This document shows, piece by piece, positions 32,105-62,048 of a stretch of 64,000 nt of DNA; the first letter of the stretch is position 1, and each line of letters opens with the position of its first letter. The stretch is taken from positions 1,717 through 65,716 of the forward strand of contig MFRW01000002.1 in assembly GCA_001786575.1 (NCBI GenBank), written 5' to 3'. The notes under the pieces were generated by a model. That model made no database searches. It was given only the letters and a program-made list of their open reading frames with translations, and was not told the origin of the DNA. Source of the DNA: Candidatus Moranbacteria bacterium RIFCSPHIGHO2_01_FULL_55_24 (GTDB lineage: Bacteria; Patescibacteriota; Minisyncoccia; Moranbacterales; UBA1568). A program made the translations under genes and the position numbers.

Positions 32105-32141
32105 GAAGGGTGGCCGAAGCTAAACCGTTCCTCGTTCTATT

Positions 32142-32828
32142 ATGAAAGCCATTATTCTCGCGGCCGGGATAGGAAATCGAATGATGCCGCTTACTGAAAA
32201 AATTCCTAAGCCGATGCTGCGGTTATCCGGCAAGCCTTTGCTCGAACATATTCTTGAGTATCTTCCCCAGGAGATAGACGAAATTATCATGGTAGTGGGG
32301 TACAAGAAAGAAGTGATACAAGATTACTTCAAGGAGTCTTTTCAAGGAAGAAAGATAACCTATCTTGTGCAAGAGAATCCCGCAGGGACTTTTGATGCGC
32401 TAAGTCTCTCTCGTCCGTACCTGGAAGATGGCGAGCGTTTTCTGCTTACTTTCGGGGATGATATCTATGATAGAGAAAGTGTGGCGCGGTGCCTGCGTCA
32501 CTCGTACGCTTTCCTCATCGGCGAGGTAGCTGATCCTCGGCGCTACGGTGTGGTTGTGTTCAATGAGGACGGGGAGACGATTCAAGAAATAGAGGAGAAG
32601 CCGGCGCATCCAAAGTCAAACTTTGTTGCGCCCGGGGTGTACATAGTAGATACGAGTATCTTTGATTATGCTCCTGATGCCCAGCTCTCCCAGGAGCATT
32701 ACCTGACGAATATGTTCAATCAGTTCGTAAAAGAGAACAGAGTTTTTGTAGAAAAAGTGGGTTTTTGGCTCACATTTGCTTATCCGGAGGATCTCGAGAA
32801 AGCTGAAGAATTACTGAAGCGACGCTAG
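32142..32828 (+). CDS. Sugar-1-phosphate nucleotidyltransferase (NTP_transferase family)
   Basis: MKAIILAAGIGNRMMPLTEKIPKPMLRLSGKPLL is the GxGxR pyrophosphorylase signature. This is the first gene of the low-GC island. Confidence 0.7.
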   Translation: MKAIILAAGIGNRMMPLTEKIPKPMLRLSGKPLLEHILEYLPQEIDEIIMVVGYKKEVIQDYFKESFQGRKITYLVQENPAGTFDALSLSRPYLEDGERFLLTFGDDIYDRESVARCLRHSYAFLIGEVADPRRYGVVVFNEDGETIQEIEEKPAHPKSNFVAPGVYIVDTSIFDYAPDAQLSQEHYLTNMFNQFVKENRVFVEKVGFWLTFAYPEDLEKAEELLKRR

Positions 32829-32869
32829 AATCAGCGTTGTTTGGCCGGTGTTGATGCTGATATTCTTTC

Positions 32870-32898
32870 TTGACATAAATGAAATTATATAGTATAAT
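32870..32898 (+). promoter_or_regulatory. Perfect-consensus promoter TTGACA-N17-TATAAT, with GCTAGC-type palindromes downstream
   Basis: -35 at 32870-32875 and -10 at 32893-32898. The sequence TAGCGCTAGAAAGCTAGCGAATGCTAG lies between the -10 and the AAGGAG SD. Confidence 0.6.
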
Positions 32899-32978
32899 TT
32901 TTTTTCTAGTAATAGCGCTAGAAAGCTAGCGAATGCTAGTGTTTAGTTCTTAAAAACATCCGAATCAAGGAGAAATCT

Positions 32979-33521
32979 ATGAGCGAACTGCTAGACGTAT
33001 TGGACGAGCAAGGAATACAGACTGGTGTCAGCGTCCAAAGGTCAGAAGTGCACAAGAACGGTCTCTGGCACGGGACGGTTCACATATATGTTTGCAGGAT
33101 GATCGGTCAGAAGGTCGAAATCCTCGTCCACTTGAGGTCGGCTAGCAAGGATCTCTACCCGAATACGTGGGATCCGGTCTTAGGCGGCCATATCCAAGCT
33201 GGGAACACCCCAATTCAGACCGTCGAGGAAGAACTTAGTCAAGAAGTCGGGCTTTCTATATCTCCAGAGGACTTGATTGTCGGGCCGATAGTGAAAGCCG
33301 ACAAGGGTTCAGATAAAGAGTTCAACCACATCTTTGTGTACCTGTTTCCTTCTGATGCATCTGTGTATTTCAAGGACAATGAAGTACAAGAGGTTCGGTG
33401 GATGGAACTCGATGAAGTATTGCGAGCTATCGAGACCGCTCCTACCGAATGGCGGCCGACATGCGATGAGTTCTTGGCCGCTTATCCGGCAGTGACTTCC
33501 TTGCTCAAAGCACATAGCTAG
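32979..33521 (+). CDS. NUDIX hydrolase
   Basis: A Nudix-box-like GGHIQAGNTPIQTVEEELSQEVGL and the typical fold pattern. Length is 180 aa. Confidence 0.65.
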   Translation: MSELLDVLDEQGIQTGVSVQRSEVHKNGLWHGTVHIYVCRMIGQKVEILVHLRSASKDLYPNTWDPVLGGHIQAGNTPIQTVEEELSQEVGLSISPEDLIVGPIVKADKGSDKEFNHIFVYLFPSDASVYFKDNEVQEVRWMELDEVLRAIETAPTEWRPTCDEFLAAYPAVTSLLKAHS

Positions 33522-33602
33522 GCCGACGGCGGCAAGATTACAGAGTACTATAAAGACCACTGGCGAACTCGCTAGCGGTCTTTCTTTTTTATCGTACTAA
33601 TA

Positions 33603-34121
33603 TTACTGCTCGAGGAAAAAAGTCTCTAGTTTAGTCCATTGCTTCGTTTCTCCTTCTGTACGCCAGAGCTCGATTGTTTTTGCAAAGAAAACCGATTCTA
33701 TTGATTCCAAAGCGGCCTGGAGTGACTGGATATCGTTTAATGCGAACTCTCCGTAGGCGATACTCAAGTGGGGGAAGTGCTCTTTTTCTGGCAATCCGAA
33801 ATGTTGACGGCTCTCTTCGTAGATTTGCATAATTTCAGGAGTCTTTTTTACTTTCAGAAAGAGTGCCTGGAAATAGGTTTCGTAGGAATCAATGCCGCAC
33901 GTCTGTATTTCTAGAGGTTTGAGGGTTTTTGAAAGTGTCTGTGTCTTCTCTCGGACATTTTTTTCAAGGTCTTGAATTCCGCCAAGCAAGGTAACATGAG
34001 GCTCAAATAGCGGTGTCTGGTATTTGAGTGCAATATCCTTTATTCGCTCGGAAAGAGCGAGGTATGCTTGGGAATCTGTATCTGGCACGAGCCAAAGCGA
34101 GTATCCTATTGCTTTTGACAT
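33603..34121 (-). CDS. 2H phosphoesterase (LigT/ThpR 2'-5' RNA ligase / cyclic phosphodiesterase family)
   Basis: Two H-x-T/S-x motifs (PHVTLLG and PHLSIAYG) are present. Length is 172 aa. It is the only sizeable minus-strand gene in the window. Confidence 0.75.
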   Translation of the reverse strand: MSKAIGYSLWLVPDTDSQAYLALSERIKDIALKYQTPLFEPHVTLLGGIQDLEKNVREKTQTLSKTLKPLEIQTCGIDSYETYFQALFLKVKKTPEIMQIYEESRQHFGLPEKEHFPHLSIAYGEFALNDIQSLQAALESIESVFFAKTIELWRTEGETKQWTKLETFFLEQ

Positions 34122-34174
34122 ACACTTTCTCTCTTAATAAAGCCTTAAATACAGTATATCACCGACTACTTTGC

Positions 34175-34203
34175 TTGACATAATATACAATATGTGCTAG
34201 AAT
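34175..34203 (+). promoter_or_regulatory. Promoter TTGACA-N17-TAGAAT with an extended -10 (TGcTAGAAT)
   Basis: -35 at 34175-34180 and -10 at 34198-34203. An approximately 85-nt leader runs to the ATG at 34291. Confidence 0.55.
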
Positions 34204-34290
34204 GTTATGTCGTTGTGTAATACATAGCGATAGAGTTCCTTTCAGCGATGAGAGGCACCGAAAGTACAGCACCTTAGCACGGAGGGTCTC

Positions 34291-34749
34291 ATGCCCAAAC
34301 TTAGCGTGGAAGAAATGACGCAATATGGCGTCGTGGTCGATGGCGAAGTGATGGACAACGGCGAGCAGCGCTTCCGCCTTATGTTGAATGGCAATGGGTA
34401 CGTCTGGACACAGCCGTCGGCAGATCAGCCGCCAGCTTGGCAGAATGCCCACCTGCACAAGGGTGTGCTCGAGACGTACATCGTCCAGACTGGCAAGATA
34501 GCTGTCGCTTCCCTCTACGAGGGAGAGCGTATGGTGAAGATCTACCATGCCGGCGATGTCGTCACGACGGAACTGAACGTTCCGCACAACGTGTACCTCT
34601 TTGCCGGCGCCGGCATCCATACGGTCAAGCACGGAACGCCGATCGGTAACCCCGAGAAGAGCGGTGCTGACTGGTACCCGGCAGATCCGGACTTCGATGT
34701 CTGGTCGAAATCTCTCAACGAGGCGACGATTAACGAACTTGCTTCGTGA
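34291..34749 (+). CDS. Cupin-like small protein (hypothetical)
   Basis: 152 aa. HLHKGVLETYIV...G...H suggests a cupin fold. No specific family was recognised. Confidence 0.4.
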   Translation: MPKLSVEEMTQYGVVVDGEVMDNGEQRFRLMLNGNGYVWTQPSADQPPAWQNAHLHKGVLETYIVQTGKIAVASLYEGERMVKIYHAGDVVTTELNVPHNVYLFAGAGIHTVKHGTPIGNPEKSGADWYPADPDFDVWSKSLNEATINELAS

Positions 34750-34800
34750 TCAGAACCGGATTCGAAACTTCCCAGGTTTTGTTACAAACCTGGACCTTGA

Positions 34801-34830
34801 GCGCTGTGAAGAAATTCACGGCGCTTTTTT
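34801..34830 (+). terminator. Rho-independent terminator
   Basis: GCGCTGTGAA-gaaa-TTCACGGCGC followed by TTTTTTCTT. It is preceded by a second hairpin, CCAGGTTT-tgttac-AAACCTGG. Confidence 0.65.
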
Positions 34831-35005
34831 CTTAAAAAAATCTCTCCTGACCTTAAGGATGGACCTACGATGTAGAACCAGTGTCTTTTCAGAAGACTAT
34901 AATGAGCTTGACAAATCTGATAAAAAATGTTTTTATGTAGTGTCTGGGTATAAGATTCAGACCCCGATATTTCGTCGGATGTTCTTTACAAGAGAGGAAT
35001 TCATC

Positions 35006-35752
35006 ATGTGCTTCAATGTGCTGAAAACCCTGATTTTTTCGATGGATCGTCTCCTCTATTATCCGCCGATCGAAGAGGAGATCGAATGGAACATGGAGCG
35101 GCTCTACCGCTTTCAGCAGCCGGAGACTATCACCGAAGAAGACGTCGTCAACAAGGTACTCCGTGGCTGGGCCAGGCCGGTCATGATCAAGAACTGCGGC
35201 CGTTTGATTTCTGTGTCTAGCGAACAGGGGGAGGGCAGCCGGATGATATTCAAAGACGGCAAGTTGCTCCGGGAATCAAGTCCCGAAGAACTCCGCAAGC
35301 AGGTTGAGGCCTTCGAGCAGCGGATGACCAGAGATACCCCGAAGCTTCGCCAAGAGTTCGAACACGCCGTAATCGACGGCAAACGCGTCGTCGAAGTCGG
35401 TGATATGGTTTGGTGGCAAAACACTGACCACACTCAACTTCTCGCCGCGTGTCGGCTGGAAGATGGTTCGTTCTTGGTACTTGGCTATGACGATGGTACG
35501 TTCGTCATTCCCAAGCCCAGCAGGCACTCATGGGTGCTTAGTGGACTCGAGGTATTGCCGAAGCTTGAACTTGATGATGGGAAAATCAACATCCATTTCG
35601 GGGAAGAACATTACCTCATGGCTGCGTACAGCTATGACGAAAACGATGGTCGACACAAGTGGATGTATGTCGGCACCGGTTATAGCGGGGATGCTGCTCT
35701 CGAGGCATTTGCCAAGCATGGCATGAGTTTTCATGCCGAAAGTGACGAGTAG
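35006..35752 (+). CDS. Hypothetical protein (248 aa) with no recognisable family
   Basis: The ATG at 35006 has the SD AGAGGAA. The product is an acidic, soluble protein. The upstream 400 nt of the ORF-track ORF (34601-) overlaps the cupin gene and terminator, so it is rejected as coding. Confidence 0.5.
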   Translation: MCFNVLKTLIFSMDRLLYYPPIEEEIEWNMERLYRFQQPETITEEDVVNKVLRGWARPVMIKNCGRLISVSSEQGEGSRMIFKDGKLLRESSPEELRKQVEAFEQRMTRDTPKLRQEFEHAVIDGKRVVEVGDMVWWQNTDHTQLLAACRLEDGSFLVLGYDDGTFVIPKPSRHSWVLSGLEVLPKLELDDGKINIHFGEEHYLMAAYSYDENDGRHKWMYVGTGYSGDAALEAFAKHGMSFHAESDE

Positions 35753-35780
35753 AGGCAGTTTATCGGAGTTGAATTGACAA

Positions 35781-35815
35781 GGCGTTTCCCTACAGGGGAG
35801 ACGCCTTTTTCTTTT
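35781..35815 (+). terminator. Rho-independent terminator
   Basis: GGCGTTTCCC-taca-GGGGAGACGCC followed by TTTTTCTTTT. Confidence 0.6.
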
Positions 35816-35882
35816 ACCGGCGCCTTTTCCGGGCAGGGAGGATTTGCTATACTGCGGGCAATGGAGTTCCCATACTATTTTT

Positions 35883-36860
35883 ATGATCAAATTTAGCTTC
35901 ATTGTTCCGGTCAAGGAGATCAATGCTTATATCCGCGAGGCGACTCCTATTATTCTCCAGATTCCGCGGGATGATTACGAAATCCTCATCTATCCGGATG
36001 AAGCGACGGATGAAACCTGGCCCAAGACCAGACAGATTCCGACCGGCCATTGCGGACCGGCAGAGAAGCGGAGCCGAGCTATCCAAGACGCACAGGGAGA
36101 AATATTGGTATTCATCGACGATGACGCTTATCCGGCACCGGATTTTCTGGACAAGCTGGAAGAAGATTTCCGGGATGCAGCCATAACGGCGGTGGGCGGT
36201 CCGGCTATTACGCCGCCGCATGACAGTTTCTGGCAGAAGGTATCCGGAGCGGTTTTCTTGAGTTCGCTTTCGGGCGGCGCTCCGGAGCGCTATGTACCGG
36301 TAGGGGAGAAGCACTTCGTTGATGATTGGCCGAGCGTCAATCTTTCGATCAGGAAAGAGGCTTTTGCCCGTTTGGGAGGATTCGACTGCGCGTATTGGCC
36401 GGGAGAGGATACCAAACTCTGCCTGGATCTCACTACGAAGCTGCAAGGGAAGATCCTTTATGATCCAGCGCTTCTCGTCTATCATCATCGGCGCGAGGGA
36501 CTGCTCCGCCATATGAAGCAGGTGAGCGGTTATGGATTGCATCGGGGGTTTTTCGCGAAAACCTACCCGGCGACCTCTTTCCGCTTCAAGTATTTCTTGC
36601 CGGCAGCTTTCCTCTTGTTTGCAGTTGTCGGGGCTTTGTTGGTGATGTTCCAGCCGGCATTCCTCCCATGGTATCTCTTGGGTTGGGCACTGTATGCCTT
36701 GGCGCTCGGGAAGGCAGCTTGGGATATCTACCGCTACGAGCGGAGCCTGGCTCTGACGCTTCATGCGCTCTATTATATCTTTTTCACCCATCTCGCGTAT
36801 GGGTGGAGCTTTCTTAAGGGTTTTTTGTGGGTACGGAAGCTCAAAAGCAAGCTTCGCTGA
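35883..36860 (+). CDS. Glycosyltransferase family 2 with a C-terminal membrane domain
   Basis: A GT2 A-fold (ILIYPDEATDE, VFIDDDAYP DxD). The C-terminal third contains 3-4 TM helices. Confidence 0.75.
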   Translation: MIKFSFIVPVKEINAYIREATPIILQIPRDDYEILIYPDEATDETWPKTRQIPTGHCGPAEKRSRAIQDAQGEILVFIDDDAYPAPDFLDKLEEDFRDAAITAVGGPAITPPHDSFWQKVSGAVFLSSLSGGAPERYVPVGEKHFVDDWPSVNLSIRKEAFARLGGFDCAYWPGEDTKLCLDLTTKLQGKILYDPALLVYHHRREGLLRHMKQVSGYGLHRGFFAKTYPATSFRFKYFLPAAFLLFAVVGALLVMFQPAFLPWYLLGWALYALALGKAAWDIYRYERSLALTLHALYYIFFTHLAYGWSFLKGFLWVRKLKSKLR

Positions 36861-36945
36861 ACGATCCGTAAGGACATAGCTTAGACCAGTACGCTCTTTT
36901 ATGGTATGATATCCGAGTAAATCAACTGACGAACTCGGCTTTCGG

Positions 36946-37233
36946 ATGAGTTTCTGGAGGCCGAAAAGAACAAAAAATATGGAAGAATCGCAGAATGCAC
37001 GCACCGTGAAACATGATGATATCGAGATCCGCATCCTTCGTGAAAAATGCATCGGCGCGGCGACCTGCGTGGTGTATAGCCCATCCACTTTCGATTTGGA
37101 TGAGAGCAATATCGCTGTAGTGAAAGAAGGCCAATGGGATGAGCTGGAAAAGATCGTAGCTGGTGCCCAATCATGCCCGGTATTGGCAATCGAGGTATAC
37201 CAAGCTGGAAAAAAACTCTATCCAACTTCTTAA
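36946..37233 (+). CDS. Small [4Fe-4S]/[3Fe-4S] single-cluster ferredoxin
   Basis: CIGAATCV...SCPVLAIE fits the CxxAxxC...CP pattern of Pyrococcus-type ferredoxins. The start may be at the internal Met (36979). Confidence 0.6.
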   Translation: MSFWRPKRTKNMEESQNARTVKHDDIEIRILREKCIGAATCVVYSPSTFDLDESNIAVVKEGQWDELEKIVAGAQSCPVLAIEVYQAGKKLYPTS

Positions 37234-37244
37234 AATCTCACTCT

Positions 37245-38951
37245 ATGTCTACTATCCTTGATATACAAAAAAGGAACGAAAGCCCTTCCCGGGAGAAGAT
37301 CGATGTGACAGTCGTTGTCGGCTATCCTCCGATCAAGTCTGACAAAGGCGTGCCGCTTTTGAGCCAGAACCGCCAGTTCCAGTACTTCAACGCGCCGACG
37401 TACATCTATCCGATGGTGCCGGCGTATGCCGCATCGAATCTCCAGGACCAGGGATATCAGGTCTACTGGATGGACGGTATTTCAGAACACAAGGAATACG
37501 ACGAGTGGGTAGATGAACTGCGTGCGACGGGCGCCCAGTACCTCATGGTGGAGTCCAAATCTCCGATCATCAAGACACACTGGAAGCAGATCAATGACCT
37601 GAAGGAGAAACTTCCGAATCTGAAGCTGATCTGGGTGGGCGACCATCTTACATTCATGCCCCTGGAAACTTTGGAAAACAGCAATGTAGACTATGTCCTC
37701 GTGGGCGGTGATTATGACTTCTTGGTAGCCAATCTCTTGAACCATATCCATCGCGGCGAAGAGCTGGAAGGCGGGGTGTACTGGCGCGAAGGGGACGTCT
37801 CTATCAAAGCTGCTCCCAAAGAAGTCATCACTTTAGGAAACGGGAAAAAAGTAGCTACTTCCGGTCCGGATTGGGTGCGCCATAATCTCGATACTTTGCC
37901 TTTCGTTGATCGTGACCTGACCCGTTGGGAGCTCTATGCCTATGAGAATGGGAACTACAAGTATCTCCCGGGCACCTATATGTACAGCGGCCGCGACTGC
38001 TGGTGGAACCGCTGCACCTTCTGCGTGTGGGACCACACGATCAATCCGATCGGTACGTACCGCAGTTTCTCTCCGGAACGTCTCTTCGCCGAAGTGAAGC
38101 ACGTGGTGGATAAGTATGGCATCAAGGAAATCTTTGACGATGCCGGAACGCTCTTCATCGGCCCCAAGCTGAAGAAATTCTGCGAATTATTGATCGAGAG
38201 CGGCTATAACAAGAAAGTGAAGTATGGCTGCAACATGCGCTTCAATGCCCTGAACCAGGAATACTACAACCTGATGGGCAAGGCCGGCTTCCGCTTCATC
38301 CTCTACGGCATGGAGTCCGGCAACCAGAAGACGCTCGATAAGCTGGACAAGGGGACCAAGGAAGAGGATACGATCAATGGCGCCCGTATGGCATCGCAAG
38401 CCGGGCTCGAACCGCATGCGACAATCATGCTCGGGTATCCATGGGAAGATTATGAGGATTCCAAGCGCACGATAGCGGTCGCGAAATACTGCTTCAAGAA
38501 GGGCTACTTTGCTACGATGCAAGCGACGATTGTCGTGCCATACCCAGGGACGCCGCTCTGGAAAGAGTGCAAGGAGAAGGGATTGCTCCTGACCGAGGAT
38601 TACGATGATTACGACATGCGCGGATCAGTCATGAAGATTCCTCTCACCCAGGAACAGCTTATGAGCCTGACCCAGGATCTCTATTCCGCCTTCTTCTCAC
38701 CCCAGTTTATCTTCCGGAAGATCTTGAGCATCCGCAGCTTCGATGATATCAAATTCTTCACGTCTGCCGCCTATCGTCTGTTCGGACACCTACTGGACTT
38801 TGATCCGAACCAGACCAAAGTAAGTTTTACCTCGAAGGCTTTCTGGAAGACAGTCTTCAGCAAGATGTTCGGACACTTCTTCCGCCCGAAGACTTCGGTG
38901 GACGCCGAGAAGGATGCTGTACGTCTTCAGGATAGTGCTGTGAACCGCTAA
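37245..38951 (+). CDS. B12-binding-domain radical SAM enzyme (class B rSAM, methyltransferase-like)
   Basis: An N-terminal cobalamin-binding-like Rossmann domain (VTVVVGYPP...) is followed by a radical SAM core with the cysteine triad in DCWWNRCTFCVWD and a GYPWED-type C-terminal region. Length is 568 aa from the ATG at 37245. Confidence 0.8.
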   Translation: MSTILDIQKRNESPSREKIDVTVVVGYPPIKSDKGVPLLSQNRQFQYFNAPTYIYPMVPAYAASNLQDQGYQVYWMDGISEHKEYDEWVDELRATGAQYLMVESKSPIIKTHWKQINDLKEKLPNLKLIWVGDHLTFMPLETLENSNVDYVLVGGDYDFLVANLLNHIHRGEELEGGVYWREGDVSIKAAPKEVITLGNGKKVATSGPDWVRHNLDTLPFVDRDLTRWELYAYENGNYKYLPGTYMYSGRDCWWNRCTFCVWDHTINPIGTYRSFSPERLFAEVKHVVDKYGIKEIFDDAGTLFIGPKLKKFCELLIESGYNKKVKYGCNMRFNALNQEYYNLMGKAGFRFILYGMESGNQKTLDKLDKGTKEEDTINGARMASQAGLEPHATIMLGYPWEDYEDSKRTIAVAKYCFKKGYFATMQATIVVPYPGTPLWKECKEKGLLLTEDYDDYDMRGSVMKIPLTQEQLMSLTQDLYSAFFSPQFIFRKILSIRSFDDIKFFTSAAYRLFGHLLDFDPNQTKVSFTSKAFWKTVFSKMFGHFFRPKTSVDAEKDAVRLQDSAVNR

Positions 38952-39066
38952 GCTTAGCGAAATCTATAGGGTTCTGGAGGATAAATGAGAATCCCTCAAG
39001 CTTTCCGCTTCTGGGATTCTTTGTCTGATAGGTCCCAGTATTTATGCAAAATAGCCGACTGAATAT

Positions 39067-39591
39067 ATGAGTTTGCTTTTTCATTTATCCCTTCATGTTT
39101 TCCTCGCTTTGCTTGCCGGATTCTTCGTCTGGCTCCTCTGGCGCCGCCCGGTTGTTTCTTTTGCCGCGGCTTTCCTCGGGGGAGTACTGATCGACCTTGA
39201 TCACCTCATCGATTACTTTTTGGCTTTCGGGTTGCATTTCAGGCTGGATTATTTCCTCCAGGGATACCAGTTTCTGAAGAGCGACAAGCTGTATGTCTTA
39301 TTCCATGGCTGGGAATATGTGGTGCTCCTGGCGGTGCTTGCCTTCGCTATGAAGAGTAAATTATGGCTTAAATCAGCCATTTTATCATTATCCCTCGGAA
39401 TGTTTTTTCATTTGCTAATAGATGTTAATATAAATGATGGGATGACCCTCAAAGGGTATTCTGTTTTTTATAGGACAGCGCAGGGTTTCGAGATTCAGGA
39501 AATCATGACCCCAGAACATTATAAGGACCACCAGCTCCGGAAGCAGGGGGCAACTTTCTTGGACGAGCCTGCTCTCTCGGATAAATTATAG
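39067..39591 (+). CDS. Hypothetical polytopic membrane protein (possibly a DUF457/YdjM-like metal-dependent hydrolase)
   Basis: 174 aa with 4-5 TM helices and conserved His/Asp residues (DLDHLIDY, HGWEY, HLLIDVN). Confidence 0.4.
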   Translation: MSLLFHLSLHVFLALLAGFFVWLLWRRPVVSFAAAFLGGVLIDLDHLIDYFLAFGLHFRLDYFLQGYQFLKSDKLYVLFHGWEYVVLLAVLAFAMKSKLWLKSAILSLSLGMFFHLLIDVNINDGMTLKGYSVFYRTAQGFEIQEIMTPEHYKDHQLRKQGATFLDEPALSDKL

Positions 39592-40623: not shown

Positions 40624-40650
40624 GTCCCTAACTTATTTTTTTAAAAAAGT

Positions 40651-43993: not shown

Positions 43994-44002
43994 TCTCATA
44001 CT

Positions 44003-50927: not shown

Positions 50928-50958
50928 TCCATTTATTTTTTCTTCATTCTTGTCTTTT

Positions 50959-52038: not shown

Positions 52039-52136
52039 GATCGGTCGAAATCGCCTCGGCCAGCTGCTGATAAAATCCAGATTAGAGCAGCCGGAACTTC
52101 CAGGTCGGACCAGAGTAAGCAACTGAAAAAGAGATT

Positions 52137-54373: not shown

Positions 54374-54389
54374 GAATCAATAACATATT

Positions 54390-54890: not shown

Positions 54891-57800
54891 ATGCGGATAA
54901 GTTTGGTTATTCCGGCGTATAATCGGGAAGCGCTCATTCGGGAGGCTATCGAGAGCGCTCTGGAGCAAACTGAAAAGATAGACGAAATCATTATCATAGA
55001 TAATGATTCGCTCGATGCTACCTTTCGGATTGCAGAGGAGTATGTGGCGAAATATGATCATATCAAGGCCTTTAGGAATGAGAAGAACATTGGAATGATC
55101 AACAACTGGAACCGAGGGATCCAGAAGGCCACTGGAGACTACGTGAGCGTGCTGCATTCTGACGACATCATTCCCAAGAACTGGTGCGAGACCGTGAAGT
55201 CAGCCATTCGGAGGAATGAGGGGAAAGATGTTGCTCTCTTTTTTGGTATTTATGCTTGTTTCCAGCGGAAGCAAGGGAAGATAGAAGTTGTCTCAAGGAT
55301 TGAAAATTTTTCTAAAGATACTTTTTTCCCAGCCGAAGAATCAGTAAAGAGGCTCTGGGAGAATTTTTATGGGAATCCGAATTGTTCCGCGGCCATAGTT
55401 TATAAGAAGTCTCTTTTTGATGAAATTGGATATTTTAACCCGGACAAAGGCGTGGAGGCGGATCAGGATTTCCACATACGGGTTCTCAATAGGTATAATT
55501 CCTATTTCATCGACCAGGAACTTTTGTATTACAGGCGCCACGAATTTCAGGGATACGATTTCAAGCAAGAGACTGAATCGGCCGAGACGAGCCTAAAGCG
55601 TCTCCTGAATGCTGTCAGCATCCAGAAGGAGAATCTGAAAGATCCAGAGCTAGTCAAATATACCTATTGTGGCGTCCTGCTCTACGCTCTCAAATTCTTG
55701 TTAACGCTCCATTTCAGCCAGGCGCTCCGCTTGTTCAAAATACCAGGTATTTTCAATCGGAAGACGCTTACGAATTTCCCGAGATTTTTTTGGATGCTCG
55801 TTTCTCGAAAATATTTCAATAAATCTTTCATACTTAAATTTAGGAAAACCAGGATTTCTCTCCTTTTCTTTCTGTTTTCCTGTCTGGTTCTGCGATCTTT
55901 GATTTTTTCAAGCTACGAGGGTATTGGACATAATTGGGATTGGGGATTCCCAGCTATGCAGCCGATGTTTGAGAGGATTAACGAGCTTTCGGAGTACTCT
56001 TGGAATGGCTTTGGCTTAGGAAAAGAGCTCAATTTACAGGCTCATTTTGCGGTTAATGAGATCATCTCTTGGTCTGGGGCGATCTTAGGTACCAAATGGG
56101 CCGTAGTATTGCTTATTTTCAGTACGTTGACTATCTCCTTTTTTTCATTCAAGCCGTTACTTGATTTCCTAAGCGGACGGAAGTCCGATCTTCACTATTT
56201 ACCGAGCGTCCTCTACGCTTTCTCGCCGTTTCTTTTCAATGAGATTATCGGTGGGTCTTGGTATATGTGGGTTTCATATGCTTTTGCCCCGGTTCTTTTC
56301 TTGAATCTGATCCGATATGTGCATTTTAGAAGATTGAAACATCTCACGGGATATTTATTGGCCACGGTTTTCGTGTTGATATCTCTGCAGAACTTCGTAG
56401 TCATCGAATCGATTGCGGCGGTATTTCTTCTTTTTAATATGATCCTTAACAGGGATCATTTGGAGAATGTCAAGGGTTTGGTCGCAGGCTATCTTTGGGC
56501 GCATCTCATTTTGTTTCTCGCTAGTCTTTATTGGATAGTCCCTTTCATCTACTCTCTCAAGACATTCTATCTGATGGTTACAAGCGTTTCCTTTACGGGC
56601 GGCTTCGAAGGCATCCGTGATATTACCCAGGGCGTGCTCGAGATATTTTCTTTGGCAGGATATTTGGATAGGAATATGTATTATCATGCTATCCCTGATG
56701 GAGCCCTTCTCCTTTTCAACATTTCTGTGGCAGCGTTTTGGGTAATGCTTTCTGCGACTTTTTTTCTCAAGCGACAGGAGGAGAAACAAAAAAAGAACGT
56801 GTTGCTCTGGTTTTCCATACTGATACTCCTGATTCTCGTTATCAAAGGAGGAAATGCTCCCTTCGGAAGCCTCACAATGTTCATCTTCCAGCATTTCCCA
56901 TTGATGTCGCTATACAGAAGTCCGCAGCATCTGATGTTTGCGGCAGCCTTTCTTGTCCCGATACTCATGGCCTTGACAATCCATTCTTTTATCCGGAGCG
57001 GATTTTCAAAAAAAACGGTAATAGTTCTTTTTCTTCTGATTATCGGCTTTTGGACAAGCGCCTGGTGGCTGAATGGTGACCTGGGCCGTGAGATATTAAG
57101 TGCCAAGAAGAAGGACCATATAGATCTCTACACCATCGCTCCGACTCTGCGAAAGATTTATGAATACAATGAGAACAGTTTTTTGGCGCATCGTATCCTC
57201 TTCCTTCCTACAGCTTTCAGTCCTGATTACTTGCCGAATGAGTATCAAAGAAAAGCCCAAGGCGGCCAGCCGGAATATTCATATCTTAAGAACCCGACTT
57301 TTAGCGCAGAGTTCAATGCTCTCGCAGGCCTTATCGATGATAAGCTCTGCTATAACGAAGAATTCGACCTCCTGAAATACCTTTCGATTACCAACACCCG
57401 ATATGTTTCGCTCCGGGAAGATATCTATCCGCACCATTCTAAATGTGGAATTTTTAAGGTTTGGGATGCGGATCATACTCGTAAGCTCATTGAAAATACA
57501 GCTGGTTTAGCGCCTGTCAACGGATTAGAGGGATTGTACTTAGTAGGGGATGAATACTTCTTGCAGCGTTTCTTCGTTCCGAAAAAAGTCGTTGTATCGG
57601 ACCGTGAGGTTGAAAATATTCCCGATATCGTTTCTACGGACGACTACGAGGTTGGTACAGCGCTCTTCCTGAAGAGTCAGAATAAAGAAAGGACTGACGT
57701 GCTGGACACAGCTAGTATCGCGCGGATATCTGGCAGAGATAAGGATCCGACGTTGGAATTTAAGAAAATAAGTCCCGTGAAATACAGGATGAGGATTCAT

Positions 57801-58385
57801 GGCGCGAAGGGCGTGTTCCCGCTCGTTTTTAATGAGAGTTTCCATGAAGGATGGAAGCTGTATCCCGGAGAATCTGATAGTGTGCTGTTTTCAGCTTCTG
57901 CAGCGGGTAGGATCGGAAATTATCATGTTATTGACGGCAATGTCGAAAATCAGGCGAGTCAAGATGAATTAGAGCGATATATCCGAAGAGGATGGGTTAC
58001 TGGTTTTGGAGAAACAAATAATATCAGTTTCGTCTCTAAGGATTTTCGAGGCGCTATCCAAAATAATAATTTACCCGATGGGGATTTCTGGGAAAACTGG
58101 TTTCGGAAAGGATCTTTGAATGGCGTCTCTGGGCATCTGGTGGTGAACGGATATGCGAATGCTTGGATTATCGATCCGGAAGAAGCATGCTCTGCGAGGG
58201 CTGCTTTCTGCAAGAAGAATCAGGATGGCACATATGATTTTGAGATTGTGGCCGAATTTTGGCCCCAGAGGCTTATGTCTCTTGGCCTAGGACTCTCGGT
58301 TGCGGGATTGGCAGTATTTCTGGTATTTTTCGGTATTGTACGGATGGTAAAAGCAGCTCGGACTGGCAAGGGGGAAGCATTGTGA
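54891..58385 (+). CDS. Giant fusion protein: N-terminal GT2 domain plus a polytopic membrane domain plus a C-terminal extracytoplasmic domain
   Basis: The first ~270 aa are GT2 (SLVIPAYNRE...IIIDNDSLD...HSDD). They are followed by about 14 TM helices and a roughly 400-aa soluble C-terminus ending in a TM anchor. Length is 1164 aa. Confidence 0.7.
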   Translation: MRISLVIPAYNREALIREAIESALEQTEKIDEIIIIDNDSLDATFRIAEEYVAKYDHIKAFRNEKNIGMINNWNRGIQKATGDYVSVLHSDDIIPKNWCETVKSAIRRNEGKDVALFFGIYACFQRKQGKIEVVSRIENFSKDTFFPAEESVKRLWENFYGNPNCSAAIVYKKSLFDEIGYFNPDKGVEADQDFHIRVLNRYNSYFIDQELLYYRRHEFQGYDFKQETESAETSLKRLLNAVSIQKENLKDPELVKYTYCGVLLYALKFLLTLHFSQALRLFKIPGIFNRKTLTNFPRFFWMLVSRKYFNKSFILKFRKTRISLLFFLFSCLVLRSLIFSSYEGIGHNWDWGFPAMQPMFERINELSEYSWNGFGLGKELNLQAHFAVNEIISWSGAILGTKWAVVLLIFSTLTISFFSFKPLLDFLSGRKSDLHYLPSVLYAFSPFLFNEIIGGSWYMWVSYAFAPVLFLNLIRYVHFRRLKHLTGYLLATVFVLISLQNFVVIESIAAVFLLFNMILNRDHLENVKGLVAGYLWAHLILFLASLYWIVPFIYSLKTFYLMVTSVSFTGGFEGIRDITQGVLEIFSLAGYLDRNMYYHAIPDGALLLFNISVAAFWVMLSATFFLKRQEEKQKKNVLLWFSILILLILVIKGGNAPFGSLTMFIFQHFPLMSLYRSPQHLMFAAAFLVPILMALTIHSFIRSGFSKKTVIVLFLLIIGFWTSAWWLNGDLGREILSAKKKDHIDLYTIAPTLRKIYEYNENSFLAHRILFLPTAFSPDYLPNEYQRKAQGGQPEYSYLKNPTFSAEFNALAGLIDDKLCYNEEFDLLKYLSITNTRYVSLREDIYPHHSKCGIFKVWDADHTRKLIENTAGLAPVNGLEGLYLVGDEYFLQRFFVPKKVVVSDREVENIPDIVSTDDYEVGTALFLKSQNKERTDVLDTASIARISGRDKDPTLEFKKISPVKYRMRIHGAKGVFPLVFNESFHEGWKLYPGESDSVLFSASAAGRIGNYHVIDGNVENQASQDELERYIRRGWVTGFGETNNISFVSKDFRGAIQNNNLPDGDFWENWFRKGSLNGVSGHLVVNGYANAWIIDPEEACSARAAFCKKNQDGTYDFEIVAEFWPQRLMSLGLGLSVAGLAVFLVFFGIVRMVKAARTGKGEAL

Positions 58386-58462: not shown

Positions 58463-59449
58463 ATGTATAATGCTTTTTTTAAAAAAAACTACCAGTACAT
58501 ATTTATTTTTTTTGTTTTTCTATTGGTACTTTTTAACCATTATTTTATTATTCCCAGCGAGACAGAGGAGGTAAAGAGTGAGAAGGGGATTCCTTCTGAA
58601 ATTCCATTTTTGGATAATAAGGATACAGAAAAGGCGTACAAAAATATCTTGCAGTCAAAACAAGGGGATGTTTTTAGGGTAGGGTTCTTCGTAAAAGCCG
58701 ATCATGATCAGGTTCTCGAGGTGTTCTTGGAGTCTGCTCTCAATGAAAAGTTGAAGGTGGGTGAAATCGCAGTCAGTGATTCTGGCGAGTGGGAATATAA
58801 AGAGCTGGTTTTTGTCACTCCTGATCGCTATGATTCTCTTGCGATAAGCCTGAAGCAAGGAGAGTTGATTTCTAGAAAATGGGACAACAAAGTCGTATAT
58901 CTTGAGTCTTTCCTCATAACTCGGATAGATATTGATAAGTCACGGATCGCGACCCTTTCTCCGACCATATCTGATGTATCAGGCATAGAGCGTGCGAGGC
59001 TTGAGGATATCGGAGGAGCTTATCTCTATACCTACTCATACCAGAATAAAGAGATCGATTATCAGAATTTGTTTGACTCAAGCGGGACGGTCCATTTCGA
59101 TGATGACGATAGAATCGTTGTCGGGGAGGGTAAGAGGAGTGAGTTTTTTACATATAAATTTGATACGTTTTATCCCTTTGAGAAGTTTGTGTTTCAGGCA
59201 GTTCAAGATGGGAAATCATCAAAAGAACTTCATCTGGAGTATTCTTTCGATAATTCCTTTTGGAGGGAGATAAGCTATGCTCAAGAAAAGGGCGATCATC
59301 AAGAATTCTTCTTAACTATCCACGGCAACCAGAAAGAGAAGACGGTCTATATTCGGACGACTTATGACGGTGATGAGAAGAAAAAGAAAACTTTTGGTCT
59401 AGCTGAATTTTCGGTAATGGCGACTATTCAGAAAGCGCCTAAAAATTAG
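58463..59449 (+). CDS. Hypothetical signal-anchored protein
   Basis: An N-terminal TM/signal anchor, then a soluble domain with a Lys-rich tail. No family recognised. Confidence 0.4.
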   Translation: MYNAFFKKNYQYIFIFFVFLLVLFNHYFIIPSETEEVKSEKGIPSEIPFLDNKDTEKAYKNILQSKQGDVFRVGFFVKADHDQVLEVFLESALNEKLKVGEIAVSDSGEWEYKELVFVTPDRYDSLAISLKQGELISRKWDNKVVYLESFLITRIDIDKSRIATLSPTISDVSGIERARLEDIGGAYLYTYSYQNKEIDYQNLFDSSGTVHFDDDDRIVVGEGKRSEFFTYKFDTFYPFEKFVFQAVQDGKSSKELHLEYSFDNSFWREISYAQEKGDHQEFFLTIHGNQKEKTVYIRTTYDGDEKKKKTFGLAEFSVMATIQKAPKN

Positions 59450-61641
59450 TGAGCTTACTATCTATGGGATTGAAGGGCTTTTTGCAAGCGTGTAGATGGG
59501 AAATAGGAGGGCTTCTCTTGCTCCTGTTCTGCGTATGCATAAACCTTTTTCCGTCAGGCTACATCATCCTTGGCGGGGATGTGCTTCAAGCTCTCAACCT
59601 CTCGGAAAATTTCAAGTATTTCTATTACGAAGACTGGTTCCGTCAGTCTTTTCTCTTTTATGGGATTTTCTATTTTCTGGATATGCTCGGTGTGAGCGAT
59701 ACGGGACAATTGTCATGGTATTTGGGAATATTTTTAGTCGGATCATATCTTTCCTTTTTGGCCTTTTGTTCGCTCTTGTTTCCAAAATCACCGAAAGTGG
59801 CCAGAGTTTTAGGGGCGTTATTCTATGCCACAAATATCTATACGCTCTATATTTTTACTGCTACTTGGGGATACATCTCCTATCAGACGCTTTATATCTT
59901 TATTCCAGCGCTGGTCGGTTTATATATAAAGGTTCTCGAAACGAAACAGCCTCTTTTCGTAGTACTTTTCTTTTTGGCGGCATTTCTCGCTTCCATAGGC
60001 TTCAGTAATCCGGCATTTGCACTGGGTCTGGGAATATTTTTCTTCATCCTCACGCTACTGCTTTTTTTCACAGGATTCATATCATTTGACTGGCGAGCAG
60101 TCAGCAGGATAACACTCCTTATTTTAGGATCAGTATTGCTCAATGCCTATTGGATACTGCCAGTTATTCCGCAATTGCGAGGCGGTATAGAAGGCGTGTA
60201 TGCATCCGAATTTGTGGATTTGAAGGAGAGGCTTGAAAAGACCTCGAATGCCATATTCGATACTATCCGGCTCATGCCGACAAGTGAGCAAAATCGTTAT
60301 TATCCCTCTAATTTCCCTTACCCCAACATCTCTTGGATGGAAGATGGTATTTTGCTTCTCGCTTTCGTGCCGTTTTTCGTTGTTTTATTCGGGTTTATCT
60401 TGAGAAAGGAAAAGAGGGAATGGGTACTCTATACAATATTCTTGGCGCTCTTTACGGTCTTTGTCGCGCTGGTAGCGCGAATACGTTTTCCATTCGATGC
60501 TATGAACAGTTTCCTTTTCCAGCTTCCCGGATTCAATACACTAAGGGGGTACGATAAGCTTGCGACTTTTACCCCGTTTCTCTTAAGCGCACTTCTCTTT
60601 CTAGCTCTTCTTTCTCTGCAGGGAAAGAGATACTATCGGACTGCGATGATCGGATTTTTCGTTGTGATAGTGGTCTTAGCTTTGCCGTTTTATGTTGGCG
60701 GAATACAGACTAAGTTGAGTTATATCCTTTCTGGCCAGAAAGAGAAAGATTTTCGGACGGCGAAGCAGAGTGCTCTTGTGAAGGTGCCGGAAGCGTACTA
60801 TGACGTTAAGCCTCTTCTGCAGGAAGCTCGGGATGACAGCAAGATTGCCATGTTGCCATTCTCGCCAGGATCCAGCGTAGGAAGAGTGAATTTCCCAGCC
60901 TGGAAGGTGAATGGGCCCAATATTGTGAAGGATCTCTACGGAAAGAGGTTTATCGAACTTTATGAGTACTCTATACCTGGTTGGATGTTCGCTCAAGATT
61001 TTGAGAACACTCGTTACGATCCGGAATGGATAGTCGACCTGTATGGGCTTCTTGGAACGAAATATATCTTCTACCACAAAGATGCTAAGAAGAAGGCTCT
61101 TGAGGAAATGGAGGATTCTCGTAGATATTTGGAAAACGTCGGCGCTTTGCGGCTGGTGCGTGATACCGAATCTTTTTACCTCTACACTCTGGAAGAGAAC
61201 CGAGTTGTTCCTTATGTCTATACATCCCCGAGCGCCCTCGTTCTTGATCCGACCCCTGAAGGGCTTTCTCGAGCAGTCAGTGATTTTCGGAATCGAATCT
61301 CGTCCCCGGAATATCACCGCAAGAATCCGAAAGAGCTACAAGTGGAGATTCCGGATACCCTTGGAATCGGTTCGGAAATCTTTTTGAATGAAAAGTACGA
61401 TCCTCTCTGGGTCGCAGAATATGTCTCTCTGCAAGGGGAACACATCAGGATAGAAAGAGATACCTCGGTAAAGTATGCGAATGCATGGAAGACGGATCGG
61501 GTTGTGGCTGGTGAGGATATAGAAATTTATTATCTGCCGTTCAAATTTTTCCGTATCGGTCTAGTCTTATCAGGATTGACATTATTGGTTGTCGTTTTTG
61601 GCATGGTTTGGGTGCTTCGGAAAAAGGGTGATAATGTATAA
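59449..61641 (+). CDS. Large polytopic membrane protein with a C-terminal extracytoplasmic domain (GT-C-like or polymerase-like)
   Basis: 730 aa with about 12 TM helices in the N-terminal 420 aa, then a soluble domain and a final TM helix. The start overlaps the upstream stop. Confidence 0.5.
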   Translation: MSLLSMGLKGFLQACRWEIGGLLLLLFCVCINLFPSGYIILGGDVLQALNLSENFKYFYYEDWFRQSFLFYGIFYFLDMLGVSDTGQLSWYLGIFLVGSYLSFLAFCSLLFPKSPKVARVLGALFYATNIYTLYIFTATWGYISYQTLYIFIPALVGLYIKVLETKQPLFVVLFFLAAFLASIGFSNPAFALGLGIFFFILTLLLFFTGFISFDWRAVSRITLLILGSVLLNAYWILPVIPQLRGGIEGVYASEFVDLKERLEKTSNAIFDTIRLMPTSEQNRYYPSNFPYPNISWMEDGILLLAFVPFFVVLFGFILRKEKREWVLYTIFLALFTVFVALVARIRFPFDAMNSFLFQLPGFNTLRGYDKLATFTPFLLSALLFLALLSLQGKRYYRTAMIGFFVVIVVLALPFYVGGIQTKLSYILSGQKEKDFRTAKQSALVKVPEAYYDVKPLLQEARDDSKIAMLPFSPGSSVGRVNFPAWKVNGPNIVKDLYGKRFIELYEYSIPGWMFAQDFENTRYDPEWIVDLYGLLGTKYIFYHKDAKKKALEEMEDSRRYLENVGALRLVRDTESFYLYTLEENRVVPYVYTSPSALVLDPTPEGLSRAVSDFRNRISSPEYHRKNPKELQVEIPDTLGIGSEIFLNEKYDPLWVAEYVSLQGEHIRIERDTSVKYANAWKTDRVVAGEDIEIYYLPFKFFRIGLVLSGLTLLVVVFGMVWVLRKKGDNV

Positions 61642-61646
61642 AATAT

Positions 61647-61985
61647 ATGGCTATGAATGACGAAAAAAAGCTAGACATGAAAAAGCTTGTTTTAGAAAGA
61701 AAAGCGGATGTCATCTGTCTGTTGCTTGGAGTCGCTTTAGGCATATACTTTGACTGGAGTATCGTTGAGATTATCATTTTTCTTGTCTTTATCTGGTCGA
61801 TCCTCTGGTCGATCCCGAGCCGTTTTCTCGTCGGTCCAGCGATATTCTTTCTTGCTCTTACCCCGCTACTTCTCATGCTTGATCGGAAGGAACGCGCGGA
61901 AGAATTCGCTATCTACACTTACTATTTCCTCGCTATGGCGGTAATCCGGGGAATCATAGAGGTTCGGAAGGAAAAAACGGACTAG
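61647..61985 (+). CDS. Small membrane protein (GtrA-like size/topology)
   Basis: 112 aa with 3-4 TM helices. It is the last gene of the low-GC island. Confidence 0.35.
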   Translation: MAMNDEKKLDMKKLVLERKADVICLLLGVALGIYFDWSIVEIIIFLVFIWSILWSIPSRFLVGPAIFFLALTPLLLMLDRKERAEEFAIYTYYFLAMAVIRGIIEVRKEKTD

Positions 61986-62048
61986 TAAGGTACGAATTCG
62001 AAGAAATTTGGCGAAATTGCCGATTTTCGGTATCATAGAGGCAAGAAT

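Follow-up and report, generated by a model that had tools for sequence, protein, structure and literature searches.

A variable, lower-GC interior in a predicted envelope-glycan locus of a GC-rich Candidatus Moranbacteria genome

We analysed a 64,000-nt stretch of DNA (hereafter the window) from Candidatus Moranbacteria bacterium RIFCSPHIGHO2_01_FULL_55_24 (contig MFRW01000002.1, positions 1,717 to 65,716), in which GC content drops between the gene for a UDP-glucuronate decarboxylase (UXS) and a gene pair encoding a family 2 glycosyltransferase (GT2) and UDP-glucose 6-dehydrogenase (ugd). Comparison with related loci suggests that the low-GC stretch, at positions 32105–62048 of the window, forms the variable interior of an envelope-glycan locus conserved in Moranbacteria and that it has three parts, namely an insert (segment A), a conserved block of near-native composition (segment B) and a 22.4-kb, operon-like cassette at 39.6–62.0 kb. 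The locus as a whole measures about 50 kb or more, running from 26.2 kb to beyond the window end. It is fairly probable, in our judgement, that the cassette was replaced by recombination from a lower-GC Moranbacterium. A first-pass annotation of the window had read the whole stretch as a single horizontally acquired island inserted between UXS and ugd. The window proteins are identical to Candidatus Moranbacteria bacterium entries with locus tags A2808_01000 to A2808_01125, every protein of the region that we looked up is labelled "hypothetical" in the public record, and identical DNA is present in several Rifle aquifer metagenome assemblies. The features that frame and divide the stretch are as follows.

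31148–32104, plus strand: UDP-glucuronate decarboxylase, UXS (human UXS1 structures, E=2e-121; GC content at third codon positions, GC3, 0.74)
32105–35850, no strand assigned: segment A, predicted 3.7-kb insert (the related loci L179 and L180 run from UXS directly into a GT2 gene)
35883–39591, plus strand: segment B, predicted conserved near-native block (Pfam, NCBIfam)
62049–62990, plus strand: ArnC/GtrB-like polyprenyl-phosphate GT2, right copy (ArnC model 181 bits, full-length, under the cut-off; GC3 0.72)
63018–64000, plus strand: ugd, read from its translation and cut by the window end (the complete protein, seen in this genome's locus L006, has 435 amino acids and UDPG_MGDP_dh domains)

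Composition and edges of the low-GC stretch

The GC content is 0.563 at 1–32104, 0.456 at 32105–62048 and 0.553 at 62049–64000, and 1-kb windows within the stretch range from 0.376 to 0.531. GC3 is 0.721±0.045 in 28 flank genes versus 0.530±0.078 in 27 inside genes (Mann-Whitney p=1.8e-9), GC1 and GC2 differ likewise, and the codon-adaptation index of the same genes is 0.71 versus 0.55 (p=3e-9) when trained on the genes of 1–26 kb. That reference region is uniform in composition and carries housekeeping and cell-wall genes, including those for a Mur ligase, dTDP-rhamnose synthesis, SHMT, a GT4, a DUF4012 protein, MurJ, LepA, YceG, DnaJ and RecJ. GC-normalised tetranucleotide frequencies correlate with it at r=0.90–0.94 in tiles of the left flank versus 0.69–0.87 in tiles of the stretch, and tetranucleotide usage is therefore less host-like inside even with the plain effect of GC removed. 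The drop in composition is therefore real and well outside what chance would produce.

The drop is neither a single step nor even along its length. A GC3 profile in 100-codon blocks falls sharply at 32.1–32.25 kb and is then patchy as far as 35.7 kb. It is intermediate to native at 35.9–38.9 kb, reaching 0.71–0.79 in the 3′ half of the radical-SAM gene of segment B, drops a second time at about 39.0 kb, stays at 0.31–0.68 up to 61.9 kb and rises sharply at 62.0 kb. From gene to gene the mosaic extends from a methyltransferase gene with a GC content of 0.33 (46900–47610) to the radical-SAM gene (GC3 0.69) and a cupin open reading frame (ORF) at 34291 (GC3 0.71). Both edges coincide with gene boundaries. 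UXS is the last native-composition gene ahead of the drop and is followed by a 37-bp spacer that begins at 32105, while a 63-bp spacer precedes the right-copy GT2 gene, the first native-composition gene past the stretch. The left junction is spanned by five and the right junction by seven independently assembled contigs from different samples and assemblers at 99.2–100% identity, the range within which all contigs from the source population match the window.

Much of what the first-pass annotation had said about composition was borne out by these data, namely a break in GC, a mosaic interior and edges lying at gene boundaries, and the checks that it had proposed (windowed GC, tetranucleotide usage and codon adaptation) agree in showing a composition that is not uniform. 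Its description of the GC levels stands as to the drop, although the flank measures about 56% rather than the roughly 60% given. It had also credited the island with its own promoters and terminators, and this is true of 32.1–35.8 kb only. Promoter-like sites overall occur at about the chance level (20 versus 19.0±4.1 and 33 versus 26.3±4.6), and we have dropped island-specific promoters as a general feature.

The locus in relatives and the origin of the cassette

No single relative is seen along the full length of the locus, and the left frame, the right frame and the cassette were compared on different loci. A scan of a genome collection with UXS returned mostly unrelated phyla, UXS being too conserved, and only L057 and L013 were informative. 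On the left, the Moranbacteria relatives L179 (GC 0.44) and L180 (GC 0.43) carry the genes for Wzx, GT2, UXS, GT2, ferredoxin, radical-SAM enzyme and membrane protein in one contiguous run, with UXS 86% and the radical-SAM enzyme 83–91% identical. The segment B module adjoins UXS in both (L179 2642–6258, L180 5544–9133), is also found at L057 12249–15266 and L013 7988–9977, and lies beside UXS or one gene off in most loci examined. Given the uninterrupted run from UXS to the membrane protein in L179 and L180, segment B appears to be a conserved continuation of the left flank, and segment A appears to be an extra insert that has no counterpart in these two relatives. On the right, the GT2-ugd pair is present in most of the related loci that extend far enough to include the neighbouring gene, and without exception in those with a GT2 of at least 63% identity. 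In L173, L175, L107 and L110, a homologue of the 725-amino-acid (aa) GT-C protein encoded near the right edge, a small membrane protein, GT2 and ugd follow in that order, and both L173 and L006 continue past ugd with a GT4, LPG_synthase_TM and two PMT genes.

Within this frame the gene content is partly shared and partly not. L177 (GC 0.43) is collinear with the window over 13 consecutive genes from the radical-SAM gene to rfbG (59–88% identity), L178 from the first methyltransferase gene (46082) through a GT2-GT-C fusion gene (60–83%) and L175 from the PMT_2 gene through ugd, with cassette genes 40–79% identical; L178 and L175 have a GC content of 0.42–0.43. Different gene sets occupy the same position between the conserved flanks in three other loci. 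L180 continues past the membrane protein with unrelated sugar genes (amino-sugar, ATP-grasp, HAD), L173 has another set of glycosyltransferase and methyltransferase genes in its middle section, and L110, whose flanks are GC-rich (GC3 0.76), has at this site a low-GC block of its own that differs strongly, with a GT-C module only 27–42% identical to that of the window. A gene order common to all relatives, which the first-pass annotation would have taken as a sign of core rather than acquired DNA, is not what the relatives show. From these comparisons, UXS and ugd appear to be the opposite ends of a conserved locus in the Moranbacteria lineage.

Two further observations concern the surroundings of this frame. 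Directly downstream of ugd, L110 has a second low-GC insert (12428–15566, GC 0.29–0.48, with ORFs of 96 and 952 aa) at a position occupied in this genome by an Exo_endo_phos gene, and this position may be another variable spot of the locus. In the more distant relative L121 (540–10312, GT2 66% identical), a gap of about 1.7 kb separates dnaJ and recJ from GT2 and ugd, and no glycan locus intervenes; the region that is variable between recJ and GT2-ugd may therefore, at a deeper level, take in all of 24–62 kb.

That the cassette was probably replaced is suggested by three lines of evidence. The first is its GC3 shift. Relative to low-GC orthologues, cassette genes differ by only +0.07 in GC3, compared with +0.17 for genes of the left core and +0.21 for those of the right flank, and the cassette thus shows about one-third of the GC3 shift of the host. 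The second is its mosaic pattern. Per-gene GC correlates with that of L177 (r=0.76), and the methyltransferase gene at 46900–47610, the lowest in GC of the region and well under the remaining cassette genes (GC 0.33, GC3 0.31), has an L177 orthologue that is likewise the lowest in GC there (GC 0.37), suggesting that the mosaic travels with the cassette and was not built up here. The third is a conflict of relationships in full-length identity matrices. For ugd, L110 (85%) and L106 (83%) are much closer than L173, L175 and L107 (65–69%), and for the downstream GT4, L110 is at 55% versus 43–48% for the others, whereas the 725-aa GT-C, whose gene lies only a few hundred bases ahead of GT2-ugd, is closer to its homologues in L173 and L175 (60–61%) than to that in L110 (42%). 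The conflicting relationships and the partial GC3 shift together favour replacement, without amounting to proof. Homologous replacement would have carried the cassette into an unusually GC-rich genome, where it would thereafter have drifted partly towards the host composition; we infer both the direction and the timing of this transfer. According to a published survey, most of the gene transfers detected in groundwater Patescibacteria stay within the phylum (PMC12455944).

Several points weigh against replacement. The search for a donor with near-identical DNA found none, the best cassette homologues reaching 59–88% protein identity, and same-genus genomes are not among the relatives compared, whose flank proteins are 65–86% identical to those of the window. 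The incongruence comes from identity matrices for few genes, chiefly ugd and one GT4, and the GT2 at 62049 is uninformative, being 72–77% identical to all relatives. Relative to L175, cassette proteins (40–79%), the flank GT2 (76%) and ugd (69–72%) are about equally diverged, as would also be expected under vertical descent. The interior lies below the flanks in GC in low-GC relatives too (about 0.40 versus 0.48 in L175 and L173), and some of the GC contrast may thus be inherent in loci of this kind. Finally, no tRNA was found in the window, Pfam scans of its ORFs revealed no integrase or transposase domain, and the junction-repeat search and a repeat scan of 31–64 kb gave chance-level matches only.

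These points bear on vertical inheritance, which we consider rather unlikely, though the likeliest of the alternatives. Under it, the cluster would descend from a Moranbacteria ancestor with an interior that is AT-rich in every lineage, kept so by expression or codon selection or by a local mutation bias, and that lagged behind, with no transfer, while the genome drifted to 56% GC. It would account for the gene order common to L175, L177 and L178, for the similar divergence of cassette and flank proteins from L175, for the GC-poorer interior of low-GC relatives and for the lack of mobility genes and repeats. However, at 20–40% protein divergence synonymous sites should already be at host equilibrium, and cassette GC3 has moved by +0.07 versus about +0.2 in the flanks. 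The abrupt switches of composition within short spacers, the differing relationships of ugd and GT4 on the one hand and the adjacent GT-C on the other, and the different gene sets held by relatives in the same frame also argue against it.

The reading proposed on first pass is that an unrelated donor contributed one block of about 30 kb, encoding an S-layer or surface-protein O-glycosylation system, which came to lie between formerly adjacent UXS and ugd genes. It fits the composition break exactly at UXS and at GT2-ugd and the GT-C-rich system without a Wzy match. It also fits the only locus in which UXS was seen to adjoin ugd, L057 of Niyogibacteria (a distant CPR genome), and the unrelated bacteria L015, L048 and L082, where no more than a few hundred bases separate the two genes. 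Nevertheless, 35.9–39.6 kb has near-native composition and is conserved together with UXS, which it follows directly in L179 and L180, and the right-hand GT-C module is conserved together with GT2-ugd, which it precedes in relatives. In addition, the nearest homologues of cassette proteins with a named source come from Moranbacteria, and the window yielded no gene for an S-layer protein or another target. The single insertion and the foreign donor are already contradicted by these data, and we regard this reading as very improbable. Of the horizontal origin claimed for the stretch, some form is retained for most of its length, and the donor lineage, so far as it is visible, is Moranbacteria and not a distant taxon.

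Least probable of all is a mobile element (an integrative element or prophage remnant) or a chimera, by assembly or binning, of two co-occurring Moranbacteria; the sharp change of composition and the breaking of several assemblies inside the gene for the 1164-aa GT2-GT-C fusion (contigs starting at 54965–56139) would suit either, but the former is rejected for want of an integrase, a tRNA and flanking direct repeats and the latter is ruled out by the contigs that span both junctions.

Gene content and predicted function

The gene inventory of the first-pass annotation proved essentially right by Pfam, NCBIfam and PDB searches. In the native-composition left flank, the following genes precede UXS.

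26200–27624, plus strand: initiating polyprenyl-phosphate glycosylphosphotransferase (Pfam Bac_transf 202 bits; NCBIfam TIGR03025 366 bits, cut-off 295.6; GC3 0.82)
28916–30214, plus strand: Wzx-type flippase (Pfam Polysacc_synt 45.5 bits, cut-off 28.2; syntenic in L179 and L180)
30177–31130, plus strand: ArnC/GtrB/PgfS-like polyprenyl-phosphate GT2, left copy (PgfS 224 bits, ArnC 154 bits, full-length)

The left-copy GT2 is 77% identical in L179, and its PgfS and ArnC scores are both under the equivalog cut-offs. The presence of GtrB/ArnC-like GT2s on both sides of the stretch, which had been pointed out on first pass, holds in that the copies at 30177 and 62049 both match over their full length, at scores below the equivalog cut-offs. 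By its scores the decarboxylase is a UXS-type enzyme, with 409 bits to human UXS1 versus about 83 bits to ArnA.

The genes of segments A and B, assigned by Pfam and NCBIfam, are listed next.

32142–32828, segment A: sugar-1-phosphate nucleotidyltransferase
32979–33521, segment A: NUDIX hydrolase
33603–34121, minus strand, segment A: 2H/cyclic phosphodiesterase
34291–34749, segment A: cupin ORF with native-like GC3
34859–35752, segment A: 297-aa orphan protein with no family match
35883–36860, segment B: membrane GT2
36946–37233, segment B: 4Fe-4S ferredoxin
37245–38951, segment B: B12-type radical-SAM enzyme
39067–39591, segment B: 174-aa membrane protein

GC3 is patchy in segment A (0.45–0.71). 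It contains two sigma-70 sites, at 32870 and 34175, of which the former is a perfect TTGACA-17-TATAAT promoter (12/12) and the latter an 11/12 match, and two terminators with stems of 12–13 bp at 34799 and 35779. Segment A looks like a separate, possibly composite insertion event, most likely made up of individually transcribed small genes.

The radical-SAM enzyme of segment B has more than 4,700 database matches, and the 120 matches listed are 68–91% identical and come from several phyla of the candidate phyla radiation (CPR), with source names including WWE3, Roizmanbacteria, Peregrinibacteria and Parcubacteria. Among named proteins, HpnJ, which catalyses hopanoid ring contraction, matches it best, at 145 bits and far under the cut-off of 578. 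This hints at radical chemistry on a lipid-linked sugar. No family match was found in Pfam or NCBIfam for the 174-aa membrane protein, and its assignment as a YdjM-like hydrolase was dropped.

The cassette encodes two predicted nucleotide-sugar pathways together with soluble and membrane-bound glycosyltransferases.

39598–42839, plus strand: predicted GDP-6-deoxy-3-C-methyl-hexose pathway, comprising the next three genes
39598–40623: GDP-mannose 4,6-dehydratase, Gmd (equivalog 574 bits, cut-off 415)
40651–41901: sugar 3-C-methyltransferase of the TylC3/TcaB9 type (D-mycarose 3-C-methyltransferase 4rv9, E=6e-59; TcaB9; Pfam Methyltransf_13/14)
41898–42839: Gmd-like reductase (gmd model 197 bits, under the cut-off)
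42845–43993, plus strand: cytoplasmic GT4 (Pfam, NCBIfam)
44003–45070 and 45079–46071, plus strand: cytoplasmic GT2s (Pfam, NCBIfam)
46082–46873 and 46900–47610, plus strand: two class-I S-adenosylmethionine-dependent methyltransferases (Pfam Methyltransf_11/23/31)
47618–50116, plus strand: PMT_2/ArnT-type GT-C glycosyltransferase, 832 aa (Pfam PMT_2 39.4 bits, cut-off 26.1)
50139–54878, plus strand: predicted CDP-3,6-dideoxyhexose pathway, comprising the next five genes
50139–50927: glucose-1-phosphate cytidylyltransferase, RfbF (full-length, 274 bits, below the cut-off of 300)
50935–52038: CDP-glucose 4,6-dehydratase, RfbG (464 bits, cut-off 278)
52137–53438: RfbH/E1 3-dehydrase (692 bits, cut-off 423)
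53435–54373: short-chain dehydrogenase-type reductase/epimerase
54429–54878: RmlC-like cupin (dTDP sugar isomerase 3ejk, E=1e-33)
54891–58385, plus strand: GT2-GT-C fusion, 1164 aa (N-terminal cytoplasmic GT2 at about residues 1–220, Pfam Glycos_transf_2 108 bits)
58463–59449, plus strand: 328-aa protein, membrane-anchored at its N terminus (L110, L173 and L175 have homologues of 35–45% identity in the same position)
59464–61641, plus strand: predicted 725-aa AftD-like GT-C fold glycosyltransferase (family without Pfam coverage)
61653–61985, plus strand: 110-aa small membrane protein, the last low-GC gene (from its translation)

The three cytoplasmic glycosyltransferases (42845–46071) are collinear in L177 at 76–88% identity, and homologues of the 832-aa PMT_2 protein reach 81% identity and are all about 800–845 aa in length. 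Neither the 328-aa protein nor the 110-aa membrane protein has a significant family match in Pfam or NCBIfam. The latter has a counterpart of 111–140 aa at the same position in L173, L175, L110 and L107, and neither database supports a GtrA-type flippase here.

RfbH shows the cysteine spacing C188-X57-C246-X-C248-X7-C256, which we take to be the iron-sulfur motif of the E1 3-dehydrase. A point against the CDP-3,6-dideoxyhexose pathway is that no E3 reductase (RfbI/AscD/DdhD; FNR-type or 2Fe-2S), which RfbH normally requires, was found among the window ORFs scanned or in those stretches of the syntenic loci L175 and L178 that were retrieved. Its place would have to be taken by a general cellular reductase, and the ferredoxin at 36946 is a speculative candidate for the electron donor in RfbH 3-deoxygenation.

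The two giant membrane proteins of the cassette are, by profile comparison and structure prediction, paralogous AftD-like GT-C glycosyltransferases. For the 725-aa protein there is no Pfam match even at E<=1, the AftD family (DUF3367/GT-C_AftD) included, and a PDB sequence-profile search with its family found nothing, so that a comparison of folds was needed. The model built from 35 homologues (pLDDT 85.9, pTM 0.88) predicts a polytopic N-terminal module with the GT-C arrangement of helices plus an extracytoplasmic domain, and the predicted resemblance to AftD is one of fold only. Residues ~337–1164 of the fusion, which make up its polytopic and C-terminal domain, align with the 725-aa family over 654 columns in a profile-profile comparison (hhalign, probability 99.9%, E=1e-36), which settled a marginal direct BLASTP match between the two proteins (E=2e-4); no direct BLASTP similarity was seen between the 725-aa protein and the PMT_2 protein of 832 aa. 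Asp39 of the 725-aa protein, located after the first helix, is invariant in 36 family members and is a candidate for the conserved acidic residue of the first extracytoplasmic loop of GT-C enzymes; in the 1164-aa paralogue it is aligned with an Asn. An exhaustive profile search retrieved 2,709 representatives of 50%-identity clusters at E<=1e-3, and none of eight distant members scanned had any GT-C Pfam domain. With the PMT_2 protein the cassette thus has three GT-C enzymes, in keeping with the GT-C-based glycosylation proposed on first pass. Contigs of several independent assemblies start inside the gene for the 1164-aa fusion, at 54965, 55516, 55568 and 56139, and one JGI contig ends near 56216 by arithmetic from contig coordinates. 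The repeat scan of 31–64 kb revealed none that would account for breaks at 54965–56216, which may reflect strain-level variants or a change of coverage in the population.

Polymerase and ligase genes of the kind found in many polysaccharide clusters were not detected. In agreement with the first-pass annotation, Pfam and NCBIfam scans of all ORFs at 26–64 kb gave no Wzy_C, Wzz or related match, although a divergent Wzy can escape hidden Markov models; no membrane protein of about 400 aa with 10–12 helices is left over in that interval, and no O-antigen-ligase-like (WaaL-type) protein was detected.

Judging from its genes, the locus most likely serves to assemble a decorated envelope glycan, with some of the steps taking place outside the membrane. 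The phosphoglycosyl transferase of the flank would start a polyprenyl-diphosphate-linked unit, which the cassette GT4 and GT2s would extend with a GDP-derived 6-deoxy-3-C-methylhexose and a CDP-derived 3,6-dideoxyhexose; the two methyltransferases would decorate the unit and Wzx would flip it across the membrane. Ugd and UXS would supply UDP-glucuronate and UDP-xylose, the nucleotidyltransferase at 32142 may supply UDP-glucose, and the two ArnC/GtrB-like GT2s would load single sugars onto polyprenyl phosphate. Using lipid-linked donors outside the membrane, the three cassette GT-Cs and two PMT-type GT-Cs encoded downstream would then finish or attach the glycan. With Wzy, Wzz and O-antigen-ligase-like proteins all undetected, the AftD-like GT-Cs may be responsible for polymerisation or attachment. 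The data show the break in composition, the synteny, the family assignments and the GT-C fold; we infer the sugar products and the order of steps from the predicted enzymes; the acceptor, which may be a protein, a lipid or a wall polymer, is not to be told from sequence. The S-layer or surface-protein target favoured on first pass is not indicated by anything in the window, where no S-layer gene is evident, and the contrast that had been drawn with classical O-antigen or capsule loci is weaker than it seemed, as the flank phosphoglycosyl transferase and Wzx bring the system closer to classical lipid-linked polysaccharide loci.

Genes of native composition continue on both sides. The glycan locus reaches at least 9 kb past the window end, where L006 (12291–20942) carries Exo_endo_phos, GT4, LPG_synthase_TM and two PMT-family genes (opposite strands) at native GC, as well as a protein of more than 511 aa; the two PMT-family proteins are presumably further GT-C enzymes. 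Upstream of the locus lie rmlC, rmlB and rmlD-like genes with two nucleotidyltransferase genes (4232–9805), and those for a GT4, a 722-aa DUF4012 protein and MurJ (10306–15527); rhamnose may be an additional feed into the envelope glycan. Long minus-strand ORFs (486–3542, 35847–37109, 62772–63938 and others) lie antisense to real plus-strand genes; they are artefacts of high GC3 and not genes.

Relation to known systems and significance

Wzx/Wzy O-antigen and capsule clusters, such as the rfb clusters of Salmonella and Yersinia with rfbFGH, combine an initiating transferase, Wzx, nucleotide-sugar pathways and several glycosyltransferases, and have a lower-GC centre. The present locus resembles them in its phosphoglycosyl transferase, Wzx, CDP-glucose dehydratase, RfbH, several glycosyltransferases and lower-GC centre, with the first two encoded here in the high-GC flank. 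Unlike in those clusters, no Wzy, Wzz, WaaL-type protein or E3 (RfbI/AscD) was detected, and five predicted GT-C enzymes and two predicted polyprenyl-phosphate sugar synthases are found instead. To our knowledge CPR bacteria lack an outer membrane, and the product would therefore not be a lipopolysaccharide O-chain.

Three-component extracytoplasmic glycosylation is known from GtrA/GtrB/GtrC, CsbB-YfhO, Pgf of S. mutans and Ugd-ArnA-ArnC-ArnT. GtrB/ArnC/PgfS-like GT2s beside GT-Cs and a small membrane protein between GT-C and GT2 recall these systems, and Ugd and a UDP-glucuronate decarboxylase would supply sugar as in the Arn system. However, the GT2 scores are under the equivalog cut-offs and the small membrane protein has no GtrA match, and, unlike in the Arn (L-Ara4N lipid A) pathway, the decarboxylase is of the UXS type and not ArnA, and ArnB aminotransferase is absent, the only DegT-family protein being RfbH. 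Mycobacterial AftD acts in arabinogalactan and lipoarabinomannan synthesis with AftA, AftB and Emb; the 725-aa protein differs from it in having 12% sequence identity, no Pfam match and about half the size, no decaprenyl-phospho-arabinose genes are present here, and one paralogue is fused to a GT2.

In lactococcal and streptococcal cwps loci, a conserved rhamnan part is combined with a variable side-chain part, and GtrB-like and GT-C enzymes serve the extracellular steps. Our locus shares with them a monoderm context, dTDP-rhamnose genes nearby (4.2–9.8 kb), a conserved and a variable region, and GtrB-like and GT-C enzymes. It differs in its sugar pathways and in that the window revealed no ABC exporter for a rhamnan chain. 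Such cwps loci are described as variable cell-wall polysaccharide loci (PMC12599335).

Replacement flexible islands for surface glycans are established in aquatic bacteria such as Alteromonas and Pelagibacterales, and their replacement is proposed to proceed by homologous recombination in the flanks (PMC4033161, PMC11898729). Like those glycotype or O-chain islands, the stretch described here occupies a fixed position between conserved flanks, has a predicted surface-glycan function and varies in gene sets without mobility genes. Those islands, however, are defined among strains of one species, whereas here relatives with 65–86% flank identity were compared, and the host is a CPR bacterium. 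As low-GC replaceable glycan islands are familiar in other bacteria, what is new is the extension to this lineage and the enzyme assignments rather than the principle. Our search of the literature on glycan loci of Moranbacteria and the CPR found no description of this locus.

CPR bacteria (Patescibacteria) are ultra-small and mostly uncultured, many are thought to live attached to other cells, and their surface chemistry is almost unknown. The analysis gives a testable map of a large envelope-glycan locus in which a swappable cassette is told apart from conserved frames. A 3-C-methyl-6-deoxyhexose and a 3,6-dideoxyhexose, both rare sugars, are predicted, a sizeable family without Pfam coverage is assigned a predicted GT-C fold, and attention is drawn to a radical-SAM module conserved across several CPR phyla. 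We tentatively suggest, as an idea that may well prove wrong, that Moranbacteria and perhaps many CPR bacteria assemble their surface glycan independently of Wzy in a manner resembling mycobacterial arabinogalactan synthesis, with the hitherto unannotated AftD-like GT-C family (at least 2,709 clusters, with GT2-GT-C fusions) as the core and with the rare-sugar cassettes that supply it being swapped. If so, cassette swaps among lineages would change the surface identity of these bacteria towards phages or host cells.

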